DNA from: a virus
Lineage: Duplodnaviria; Heunggongvirae; Uroviricota; Caudoviricetes
DNA length: 6,626 nucleotides
IMG/VR virus record: IMGVR_UViG_2734482581_000014
Strand: one strand, 5' to 3'
Numbering within the stretch: the first letter of the stretch is position 1; every line of letters starts with the position of its first letter. The notes under the pieces are model-generated. The model saw only the letters and a list, made by a program, of their open reading frames with translations, did no database searches and was not told the origin of the DNA. A program made the position numbers and the translations under genes. Below, one piece after another: positions 2,066-2,263 of this stretch.

Positions 2066-2183
2066 CTTTTGACAGGACTGCAACCGGACAGAGACTATAA
2101 AAACAGTCACTTACGGACACTGACCAGACAGTAAGCGGACCAGAAAAAGACAAAAATATACACGCAAAATGCACGTGCATTTC

Positions 2184-2217
2184 AAAAAAGCCTCTGATTA
2201 TGAAGTCAGAGGCTTTT
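2184..2217. terminator. Bidirectional rho-independent terminator between ssrA and the convergent phage tail operon
   Basis: A6 (2184-2189), 8-bp stem gcctctga (2190-2197) / tcagaggc (2206-2213), 8-nt loop, then T4 (2214-2217). A-run on one side and T-run on the other allow termination in both directions. It lies about 120 nt after the tmRNA CCA and about 50 nt after the stop of the minus-strand ORF ending at 2264. Confidence 0.55.
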
Positions 2218-2263
2218 CTAGTTGTAAATAAGGGTAACAATTTAACACGATGCAGCTTACCAA

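Follow-up and report, generated by a model that had tools for sequence, protein, structure and literature searches.

The tmRNA gene ssrA is a known target of P2/186/Fels-2-like and P4-like elements. In the tailed-phage record IMGVR_UViG_2734482581_000014, a first-pass annotation noticed phage tail genes abutting the tmRNA 3′ end with no integrase in view, which raises the question of whether this junction is the integrase-distal end of a prophage or a remnant that has lost its integrase-proximal part. The window, meaning the whole stretch of 6,626 nucleotides that was analysed, is the entire short-read contig CWZT01000195.1, and both of its ends lie inside IS elements (IS4 and IS1). ARAGORN, Rfam, Pfam and the ORF list agree that tail genes adjoin the tmRNA 3′ end, and the ORF list of the window holds no integrase. 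We conclude with high confidence that the junction is a hybrid att site, formed by a temperate phage integrating at the 3′ end of ssrA, and that it represents the integrase-distal prophage end. The target gene, the att core and the contig ends are as follows.

1–90, unstranded: terminal 90 bp of an IS4-family element at the left contig end; E. coli backbone homology from 91 on
1006–1488, + strand: smpB, a 160-aa ORF, annotated smpB in C311 and matching PF01668 in related loci
1703–2065, + strand: ssrA (tmRNA), intact, tag ANDENYALAA (ARAGORN; Rfam RF00023, 295.8 bits)
2039–2065, + strand: att core of 27 nt, CGGGTTCAACTCCCGCCAGCTCCACCA, common to ssrA, attP and the displaced fragment
6544–6626, unstranded: IS1 end (GGTGATGCTGCCAACTTACTG...) at the right contig end

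The island model (Williams/Islander) places an intact target gene at one end, and here the tmRNA is full-length at 1703–2065. An Rfam scan up to E 1 recovered the tmRNA only, the other matches lying far under their gathering scores and none of them in the junction. The core was defined by comparing the window, the ends of the C311 prophage, the attP sites of L004 and LMessi and the integrase-side junctions; with some flanks the identity extends to 2070 (CTTTT), and at position 2038 ssrA has G, whereas attP and the displaced copy have A. At the contig ends, an IS4-family transposase gene (PF13006 and PF01609) comes after the RnfH gene in near-identical complete genomes, and the terminal 83–84 bp of IS1 are also found adjoining IS1 transposase genes in such genomes (L003–L010).

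The junction itself (2066–2263) comprises the 198 bp between the ssrA end and the next ORF (end at 2264, − strand), and is AT-rich as first described (GC 0.399 vs 0.504 for the window). The convergent Mu/phiP27-type tail-fibre operon that comes after it, on the − strand, consists of the following genes.

2264–2638, − strand: last late-operon gene, DUF4376, tail-fibre-assembly-like, with an in-frame 249-bp deletion at 2427/2428
2589–3857, − strand: tail fibre protein, 422 aa, with a PF08400 N-terminal domain (Pfam)
3881–4426, − strand: tail fibre assembly gene (tfa), Caudo_TAP, a pseudogene with TAA at codon 17; Caudo_TAP over 3881–4276
4429–5481, − strand: tail fibre protein, 350 aa, from the annotations of matching genes in phiP27 and C311
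5456–6046, − strand: Mu Gp48/YmfQ baseplate protein (Pfam; C311 match)
6046–6543, − strand: Baseplate J (gp47), C-terminal part, cut by IS1 (Pfam Baseplate_J)

The ORF at 2264–2638 is indeed, as had been proposed, the last gene of a convergent tail-fibre operon; it has no Pfam match of its own, but in near-identical genomes the gene is full-length and matches DUF4376. The identical 422-aa tail fibre protein is encoded by many complete genomes. For the 350-aa ORF the Pfam match to gp37_trimer is sub-threshold (20.3 bits vs a cut-off of 21.7), and the matching genes in phiP27 and C311 are annotated “tail fiber protein” or “phage tail protein”.

What identifies the DNA between ssrA and this operon is its occurrence in phage attP sites. 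In LMessi, deposited as a complete phage genome, the order is int, core, the same arm and a convergent tail fibre gene; in phiES15, the annotated attP, which includes the arm, is followed by genes of 272 and 82 aa, int and xis; and in L004 and L008, two near-identical genomes, int, the 82-aa and 272-aa genes and the core lead up to an arm that is 100% identical to that of the window and has no ssrA body beside it. We identify the junction as the tail-side attP arm of a widespread ssrA-specific tyrosine integrase family. Its parts are listed here.

2066–2240, + strand: tail-side attP arm, phage-derived, now the ssrA-proximal prophage junction; contiguous with int in phage attP sites
2076–2090, + strand: AGGACT and CGGACA (the first CGGAC copy), nearly invariant; 29 bp off the phased array and not in register with it
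2114–2151, + strand: four RGAC units in steps of exactly 11 bp (2115, 2126, 2137, 2148), including the second and third CGGAC copies
2157–2177, + strand: ATA(C/G)CACG-N4-TGCACGTG pair at 11-bp spacing, in register with the RGAC array
2186–2217, unstranded: predicted bidirectional intrinsic terminator hairpin (AAAAGCCTCTGA...TCAGAGGCTTTT), from folding and covariation

The arm is an accessory sequence, being present in 572 of the 5,426 complete E. coli genomes and absent from the remaining 4,854 (~89%), which answers the comparison with island-free strains that had been suggested and agrees with the variable presence among strains that the island model describes. It also lies 3′ of ssrA in eight species-representative genomes, Erwinia among them, and a BLAST search for distant matches of the junction among phages returned only nine records. 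Pattern scans of IMG/VR and GTDB gave arms that are all very similar to each other. Across 48 unique arm variants, columns are at least 90% conserved over most of 2067–2180; conservation of 2145–2179 in the IMG/VR scan and of 2057–2090 in the GTDB scan was forced by the search patterns. The arm (CTTTTGAYAGGACTGCAACCGGACAG...) is therewith a good marker of the integrase-distal boundary in these prophages.

The position of the integrase is established by the relatives. A tyrosine integrase gene is present in C311 and in the sister genomes L004 and L008, and the integrases of these elements form a single family, widespread in Enterobacteriaceae, with PF12167 (Arm-DNA-bind_2) and PF00589 and 66–90% identity. 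PF12167 was found in all four integrases scanned (L004, C311, LMessi and PhiR12_1; E 1e-20 to 1e-21), and the phiES15 integrase is 86–90% identical to three of them (C311, LMessi and PhiR12_1), C311, LMessi, PhiR12_1 and phiES15 showing that same range among each other. In C311, ssrA is followed by the same arm and then by tail, head, lysis, Q, replication, cI, xis, int and a DUF4760 gene, beyond which come a 32-bp ssrA 3′ repeat and another island, at whose head stands an integrase-domain gene of its own. The direct repeat of the ssrA 3′ end that had been put forward as a sign of the other island boundary does occur in intact relatives, next to the integrase, where it marks the far boundary: a displaced ssrA 3′ fragment in the same orientation was found in C311 (L002, 5773–5797), in 47 IMG/VR loci and in seven NCBI loci, that is in relatives only. 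The integrase-centred loci numbered 80 from IMG/VR and 10 from NCBI. Wherever the core was found in them, it shares the strand of int and lies downstream of it, and past the core comes either the arm or a flank unrelated to it, such flanks being csiD backbone or P4-like integrase islands. None of these 90 loci has an intact tmRNA gene, whereas eight of nine arm-centred loci (GTDB species representatives) have one immediately 5′ of the arm. With integrases of this family, the ssrA-proximal end is always the tail end, and the expectation in the first-pass annotation that an integrase usually sits next to the tmRNA 3′ end does not hold for it.

These observations lead to the following course of events. 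The phage has a contractile-tail module of the Mu/phiP27 type and a tyrosine integrase that is specific for ssrA and of the heterobivalent type (Arm-DNA-bind_2 and catalytic domain). Its attP is flanked by int on one side and by the last gene of the late (tail-fibre) operon on the other, with transcription of both running towards it, and repeats the final 27 nt of ssrA with the tail-side arm 3′ of them. Recombination again gives an intact tmRNA gene, in which the extreme 3′ end and the DNA after it come from the phage, places the tail-fibre genes directly 3′ of ssrA, and leaves int, xis and the original ssrA 3′ fragment at the far prophage end, some 40 kb off. In the source genome the order predicted there is xis, int, the 82-aa and 272-aa genes and then ...ATTCGGACACGGGTTCAACTCCCGCCAGCTCCACCA. 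Because attP sits between the convergent int and late operon, it is the tail end that joins the intact ssrA after integration, and a missing integrase beside ssrA is what this geometry leads one to expect. The hairpin of the arm would replace the displaced native ssrA terminator and also end the convergent late operon. The arrangement is already documented for related E. coli phages and is known biology; tail genes beside ssrA without an integrase are, in this family, neither an anomaly nor evidence of integrase loss. The integrase is out of view in the window because the contig breaks at IS1 and the attP geometry puts int at the far end; that end of the source genome lies outside the 6.6-kb contig, and we infer its integrase and ssrA repeat from the relatives. 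In Shigella genomes assembled from short reads, the remainder of the prophage lies on other contigs, IS1 and IS4 breaking the assembly.

The alternative that the locus is a true remnant, a tail-side stump at ssrA like that of CP-1639 whose integrase-proximal part was deleted or moved by IS-mediated rearrangement, appears unlikely to us, though it deserves to be weighed seriously. A remnant fits an integrase-distal end as well, and differs only on whether the integrase still exists. The prophage copy in the window is defective, with IS1 in gpJ (cut at 6544), a nonsense codon in tfa, of which C311 carries an intact 181-aa homologue, and a 249-bp deletion in the last gene; additional IS1 copies lie in the upstream tail region of near-identical complete genomes. 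We considered and rejected a collapsed repeat as the origin of the 249-bp gap, which has only 2 nt of microhomology at 2427/2428 and points to a genuine deletion or a local assembly error. The CP-1639 record has no annotated phage-type integrase at its far end but IS629 and IS3 transposase genes, and among the best 10 of 28 contigs matching the exact L004-type integrase none comes from a genome with the ssrA–tail junction, in which the integrase may have been lost. Against this reading, the matches just cited cover 10 of the 28 contigs, and the N-terminal part of gpJ is found past the IS1 in L005, L006 and L008. Further phage genes do continue beyond the window, as had been proposed for checking: past the IS1, the prophage of L003–L010 runs on for at least 10 kb (gp46, gp45, gpP, DNA circularisation protein, tape measure), which marks the IS1 copies as insertions and not as deletion end points. 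Moreover, L004 and L008 keep an intact int-xis-attP joined to the same tail fibre genes with the same 422-aa protein. The first-pass suggestion of a remnant is therefore borne out as far as IS1 insertions and pseudogenes are concerned, and its other part, loss of the integrase-proximal region, is the alternative held unlikely here.

In L004 and L008 the same tail end is joined to int via an intact attP and not to ssrA, and such an intact chromosomal attP is unexplained by a simple one-prophage picture. As a separate reading, the chromosomal attP in some Shigella genomes may stem from Int-mediated attL × attR exchange between sister chromosomes, which would give a tandem copy of an already IS1-damaged prophage.

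With the integrase-distal att site as the preferred reading, the short repeats of the arm become relevant as possible protein-binding sites. The three CGGAC(A/C) copies that had been pointed out as potential recombinase arm-type or IHF-like sites are present exactly as CGGACA, CGGACA and CGGACC at 2085–2090, 2114–2119 and 2136–2141. The hexamer count by itself is weak evidence: CGGACM occurs 12 times in the whole window against 6.3 expected, about a twofold enrichment, and 8 of 200 shuffles reached 12. The spacing is more telling, since two of the three copies belong to the array of four RGAC cores in exact 11-bp steps, and a run of at least four (of any comparable 4-mer and period) arose in 9 of 300 dinucleotide shuffles. 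The RGAC cores are kept across relatives, and the variable positions fall between them (spacers 2131–2135 and 2141–2143). GGAC units phased at 11 bp and followed by the same TGCACG pair recur independently in the other, integrase-side arm of LMessi, PhiR12_1 and phiES15, and RGAC units at 11-bp spacing with the TGCACG pair are seen in the integrase-side arm of C311 too; no RGAC/GCAC module is present in the integrase-side arm of the L004-type phage. The ATA(C/G)CACG/TGCACGTG-type pair as such also occurs in the integrase-side arm of related phages, and its conservation in the IMG/VR set was forced, the 2157–2177 block having served as the search pattern.

Given the phasing and the arm-binding domain of the integrases, the RGAC and GCAC units at 11-bp spacing are candidate sites for the Int arm domain and/or Xis. 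That the CGGAC(A/C) copies are instead chance occurrences in a conserved arm, with no binding role of their own, seems doubtful, despite several points in its favour besides the modest enrichment. The stretch 2067–2180 is at least 90% conserved throughout with the motifs no better conserved than their surroundings, and because the arm is conserved so uniformly, conservation cannot single out the RGAC units as functional sites; the third copy reads CAGAC in most relatives, the second AAGGAC in Erwinia and TATGGAA in two variants, and the first is out of phase with the others. Of the role originally suggested for the repeats, a recombinase arm-type function remains a candidate for the second and third copies as members of the phased array, and the first copy stands apart. 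The IHF part falls away, as the IHF consensus WATCAANNNNTTR (up to one mismatch) has no match in 2066–2263; a perfect match (AATCAACGCATTG) and one-mismatch matches are found in the integrase-side arms of relatives. No description of the att architecture of the PF12167 and PF00589 ssrA integrases was found in searchable papers, and no binding or termination experiments on the arm were found in the literature searched; the phased array offers concrete candidate arm-type or Xis sites for this family.

Downstream of the repeats, the hairpin at 2186–2217 has the features of a rho-independent terminator, a G+C-rich stem, a U tract and a conserved structure. It folds with a ΔG of −21.4 kcal/mol on the + strand (z −5.2) and −20.6 kcal/mol on the − strand (z −6.3), with T tracts flanking it on both sides. 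Covariation is evident over 20 variants, in which 95% of the cells are paired and five pairs show compensatory changes: none of 500 shuffles matched its percentage paired, its covariation score or its number of cells altered on both sides, and the number of pairs with compensatory changes was reached in 4 of 500. From the sequence we infer that the hairpin ends the ssrA transcript on the + strand and the tail-fibre operon on the − strand.

A more speculative extension, to which we attach a rather small probability, regards the 175-bp arm as a portable dual-use module, acting as terminator in the prophage and in lambda sib-tI-like control of int after excision, with the 11-bp array setting directionality. 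In the prophage state the hairpin would serve both the tmRNA gene and the late operon as a substitute terminator; once the phage is excised, it would lie ~150–300 nt downstream of int across attP and could tie int expression to the integration state. On the six-unit 11-bp array (four RGAC and two GCAC), Int or Xis would assemble cooperatively into a filament.

Could the element have belonged to a different class, with its integrase beside ssrA and later lost there? A P2/186/Fels-2-like or P4-like origin of this kind is very improbable. Such elements do target ssrA, and a P4-like integrase island lies in tandem at the same locus in relatives. Yet the tail genes belong to the Mu gp47/gp48 and phiP27 type, on which gene content a P2/Fels-2-like prophage was rejected; the core–arm–tail sequence is unbroken and colinear with the attP of intact phages, with no gap or scar from a lost integrase; the P4-like integrase sits behind the displaced fragment and not at this junction; and neither the ORF list nor BLAST against phages revealed a relic integrase fragment in 2066–2263. 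We give practically no credence to the notion that the junction is native chromosomal DNA 3′ of ssrA, with tail genes acquired by another route and no att site, for although it lies directly 3′ of an intact ssrA with a terminator as a native flank would, it is missing from 4,854 of the 5,426 complete E. coli genomes, adjoins int in deposited phage genomes, occurs without the ssrA body in L004 and L008, and is unrelated to the other ssrA flanks (e.g. AAATTCTCCATCGG..., CTTTTTAGTTG...), each of which has its own terminator.

The comparison with known systems places the integrase-distal att site among several relatives. CP4-57 and P4-like islands use the same target gene and lie in tandem at the same locus, but have an Arm-DNA-bind_3 integrase immediately after the ssrA copy, whereas no integrase follows position 2065 in the window. 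In CP4-57, int is next to ssrA; that P4-like islands place int there is drawn from this layout and from the loci of the relatives, where Arm-DNA-bind_3 integrases come after the displaced ssrA fragment. The Islander paper contains no statement on integrase position.

Closer to the window is the cryptic Stx1 prophage CP-1639 of E. coli O111 (AJ304858; Creuzburg et al, 2005, as cited in PMC8065619). It is likewise integrated in ssrA, with recN, smpA, yfjF, yfjG, smpB, ssrA and a homologous arm (~80% over 167 bp), but there the arm is followed by dinI and then by convergent tail-fibre, lom and J genes, whereas in the window the tail module abuts the arm directly. Its record has no phage integrase annotated near ssrA or at the far end, which holds a truncated intA of a neighbouring remnant element with a remnant P4-like island beyond. 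CP-1639 is of the lambda-like siphovirus type, whereas the window carries a Mu/phiP27-type baseplate and tail-fibre module.

An E. coli O157:H7 strain resembles the window in having ssrA and then the same arm; past the arm it has dinI, a tail-fibre-assembly remnant, espM2 and espW, its cargo and morphogenesis genes differing from those of the window. We take this ssrA prophage of O157:H7, an effector-carrying lambdoid one, to be Sp17, judging from its espM2/espW locus and from the report cited next. EspM2 and EspW have been assigned to Sp17 (PMC2323221).

The Stx2e phage phiP27 shares the morphogenesis module but not the integration module. Its tail-fibre/baseplate module is 91.6% identical over 61% of window positions 2040–6560, and the colinear prophage of C311 has a P27-family small terminase as in phiP27-like phages. 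The homology begins at window position 2294, so that junction, att arm and integrase module are not shared, and integration of phiP27 has been reported at yecE (reference 32 as cited in PMC8065619), the corresponding yecE module being absent here.

The integration module finds its counterparts in phiES15 (Cronobacter) and LMessi (Escherichia), which share the integrase family, the 27-nt ssrA core and the tail-side arm (81–83% identity) with the window or its relatives, and whose integrases are 66–68% identical to the Shigella-type L004 integrase. In both phages int faces the tail genes across attP; their records show attP itself, whereas the window shows the recombined chromosome junction.

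Lambda provides the paradigm for such att sites, with its attP arms, int and sib/tI geometry, an arm-binding integrase domain and a hairpin terminator beyond attP. The elements described here are lambda-like in their arm-binding domain, in the long tail/b-region-side arm with phased repeats (2066–2240), which topologically resembles the lambda P arm, in the hairpin terminator past attP downstream of int, for which a sib-like role is a conjecture from this analogy, and in the IHF-consensus site in the integrase-side arm of relatives. They are unlike lambda in the N-terminal domain of the integrase, PF12167, and in targeting the 3′ end of a tmRNA gene instead of an intergenic attB.

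The window is the entire 6626-bp contig CWZT01000195.1 of a draft assembly and carries the following features:

1-90, end of an IS4 element at the contig start
1703-2065, + strand, intact ssrA (tmRNA) gene, found by ARAGORN and Rfam, with smpB upstream
2066-2263, junction of 198 bp, GC 0.399 versus 0.504 for the window
2264-2638, - strand, tail-fibre-assembly-like gene (DUF4376), next to the junction and last in the convergent operon
2589-3857, - strand, tail fibre gene (PF08400)
3881-4426, - strand, tail-fibre-assembly gene (Caudo_TAP) with TAA at codon 17 (stop at 4376-4378)
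4429-5481, - strand, second tail-fibre ORF, whose only Pfam match (gp37_trimer) is sub-threshold, so that its name is taken from the phiP27 and C311 gene annotations
5456-6046, - strand, Mu Gp48 gene
6046-6543, - strand, C-terminal part of baseplate J
6544-6626, 83-bp end of an IS1 element at the contig finish

The first-pass annotation had described tail genes abutting ssrA across an AT-rich gap with no integrase in view, which is correct for the window, and had proposed an integrase-distal prophage end or a remnant. The missing integrase is partly an assembly artefact because the contig ends at IS1 and IS4 in an IS-rich, Shigella-type genome. We infer this origin from the sequence: the window matches complete chromosomes at 99.7-100%, the best match among 5426 complete E. 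coli genomes being 94% only. Beyond IS1, the phage genes continue in the near-identical chromosomes with the remaining gpJ, gp46, gp45, gpP, a DNA circularisation protein, another IS1 and the tape measure gene. IS4 lies between the RnfH gene and raiA in most sister genomes, so that the usual backbone is partly displaced there, or between the RnfH gene and bamE (L009).

An intact prophage colinear with that of the window is present in E. coli C311. From ssrA, it runs through the same junction sequence to tail fibres, baseplate, sheath and tube, then HK97-type head and P27-family terminase genes, followed by lysis, Q, replication and repressor genes, and finally xis, int and a DUF4760 gene. At this far boundary, where the integrase is found, the ssrA 3' end is directly repeated (32 bp; 5773-5797 of the C311 locus, L002), and a second island follows with its own integrase-domain gene at its head. 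The check put forward in the first-pass annotation (ssrA 3' repeat together with an integrase at the other boundary) is thus positive in C311. The deposited complete genome of phage LMessi provides the attP: int is followed by the 27-nt ssrA core, the tail-side arm (window 2066-2240) and the convergent tail fibre gene. In phiES15, an attP is annotated at the corresponding place. Two Shigella-type chromosomal loci, L004 and L008, carry int, 82-aa and 272-aa genes, core and an arm identical to that of the window, with the ssrA body absent. The arm was found in only 572 of the 5426 complete E. coli genomes. Judged by these sequence comparisons, the junction 2066-2263 is phage DNA at the integrase-distal end of a prophage, which confirms the main reading of the first-pass annotation.

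In L004 (11844-13560) and L008 (also L163 and L168; CP032523.1 and CP044191.1), both among the near-identical chromosomes, attP is uninterrupted and leads into convergent tail fibres; L008 has the same IS1 insertion in gpJ as the ssrA-joined copies. A chromosomal attP suggests a tandem prophage or another rearrangement; a tandem prophage might have arisen when attL and attR of two sister chromosomes recombined.

The sequences of ssrA, attP and displaced fragment are identical over 2039-2065, and to 2070 with some flanks; a G/A difference at 2038 places the crossover 3' of this position. The integrases of C311, L004, LMessi, PhiR12_1 and phiES15 belong to one family (66-90% identical, n=5) that is widespread in Enterobacteriaceae, and PF12167 and PF00589 were detected in all four of the five that were scanned. 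We collected 80 IMG/VR and 10 NCBI loci centred on such integrases. Where the core was found, it follows int, on the same strand, and the base aligned with window 2038 is the attP-type A; beyond the core come csiD backbone or P4-like-integrase islands (both unrelated flanks) or, occasionally, the arm. An intact tmRNA gene is absent from all 90, whereas eight of nine arm-centred loci from GTDB species representatives (Atlantibacter, Enterobacter, Pseudocitrobacter, Trabulsiella, Erwinia) have one directly upstream of the arm. How the ssrA segment is oriented in attP fixes this geometry; for this integrase family, tail genes beside ssrA are the rule, and the earlier view of an integrase next to ssrA as the usual layout, with the oddity that it implies for this locus, does not apply.

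Tandem arrays at ssrA were seen in C311 (L002 3900-5800) and in L161, L162, L165 and L169 (12628-14050), where a P4-like (Arm-DNA-bind_3) integrase heads the second island behind the displaced ssrA fragment. These second islands differ in cargo, which may be a NACHT protein, a resolvase with ParB, or a histidine kinase paired with a response regulator, and each flank has its own ssrA-type terminator. In E. coli DG351-2 (NZ_CM144240.1; L158 2700-3700), the arm lies inside a prophage away from ssrA, preceded by a 25-nt ssrA 3' fragment and adjoining truncated ompW and yciE; GGGGGAGCCGAAAGGCTCGCCGGTT occurs there twice (~2713 and ~3455), and at ~3455 it is fused to the ssrA fragment. Six IMG/VR loci (L100, L105, L108, L115, L136, L155) have the conserved arm on shortened or altered cores such as GACGCCAGCCCCCACCA|CTTTTGATAGG and CGCCAGCA|CTTTTG, which could be explained by damage to att sites, faulty assembly or variants of other specificity.

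Among 48 unique variants, column conservation reaches 90% or more over most of 2067-2180, and this extends to one Erwiniaceae genome with a diverged ssrA body. Because the arm is so uniformly conserved, conservation cannot pick out motifs. Two features nevertheless stand out, a phased array and a hairpin. In the array, [AG]GAC occurs at 2115, 2126, 2137 and 2148 in steps of exactly 11 bp, followed in phase by T(A/G)CACG at 2159 and TGCACG at 2170, and the columns that vary lie between the [AG]GAC cores. Dinucleotide-shuffled sequences, scanned for every comparable 4-mer at periods of 9-12, gave a run of four in 9 of 300 cases. The integrase-side arms of LMessi, PhiR12_1 and phiES15, and more weakly of C311, contain GGAC two or three times in 11-bp steps, then the same ATATGCACG-N4-TGCAC pair as the window arm, and an IHF-consensus site closer to the core than this module. 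The array is a candidate site for the Int arm domain and/or Xis. The CGGAC(A/C) copies listed earlier as possible recombinase arm-type or IHF-like sites, or chance (2085-2090, 2114-2119, 2136-2141), are exactly placed, and the idea survives in part: the second and third belong to the array (the third being CAGAC in most relatives), but the first, though conserved, is out of phase, and the junction 2066-2263 contains no IHF consensus. The units at 2126 and 2148 had not been listed.

At 2186-2217, the arm forms a 14-bp hairpin (about -21 kcal/mol on either strand) with A and T tracts at its sides. Across 20 variants, 95% of cells are paired, with compensatory changes at five pairs; none of 500 shuffles reached the percentage paired, the covariation score or the count of cells with both sides changed, and four reached the number of pairs with compensatory changes. 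Each of the other ssrA flanks brings a terminator of its own, 35-65 nt past the CCA end. The phage hairpin would take over from the displaced ssrA terminator and would also terminate the late operon. Once the phage is excised, the hairpin stands across attP from int, downstream of that gene, a position like that of sib/tI in lambda; a sib/tI-like role is only a conjecture. Nearly all arm variants keep TTGTAA(A/C)TAAGGGTAACAA just outside the hairpin (2220-2240), a sequence with two GTAAC-like units at 10-bp spacing, and in many relatives it lies upstream of LexA-box-like sequences and dinI.

The window prophage is defective. IS1 interrupts gpJ, with additional IS1 copies in sister genomes, and tfa (the Caudo_TAP gene) has a nonsense codon downstream of which gene callers restart (162-, 131- or 123-aa products). 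Relative to all eight complete genomes, the DUF4376 gene has lost 249 bp in frame (83 codons) at 2427/2428, a break with only 2 nt of microhomology, and its 124-aa product was found in the window contig only. The exact integrase (L004 type) is common; none of the matches listed came from a genome with the ssrA-tail junction.

The junction is a textbook att junction of known kind, in an arrangement already on record for CP-1639; what is modestly new is limited to two elements of a very widely shared attP arm, its phased RGAC array and its predicted bidirectional terminator with covariation. In P4-like islands stacked behind the prophage, int adjoins the ssrA copy, unlike in the window. From window 2294 on, phage phiP27 has the same tail genes, but it lacks the junction and is reported to integrate at yecE (PMC8065619); the same paper places CP-1639 in ssrA. 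Like the window, CP-1639 has the same arm and then tail genes. An O157:H7 strain likewise continues from ssrA into the arm, followed by dinI, a tfa remnant, espM2 and espW; EspM2 and EspW have been assigned to prophage Sp17 (PMC2323221), to which this ssrA locus would correspond.
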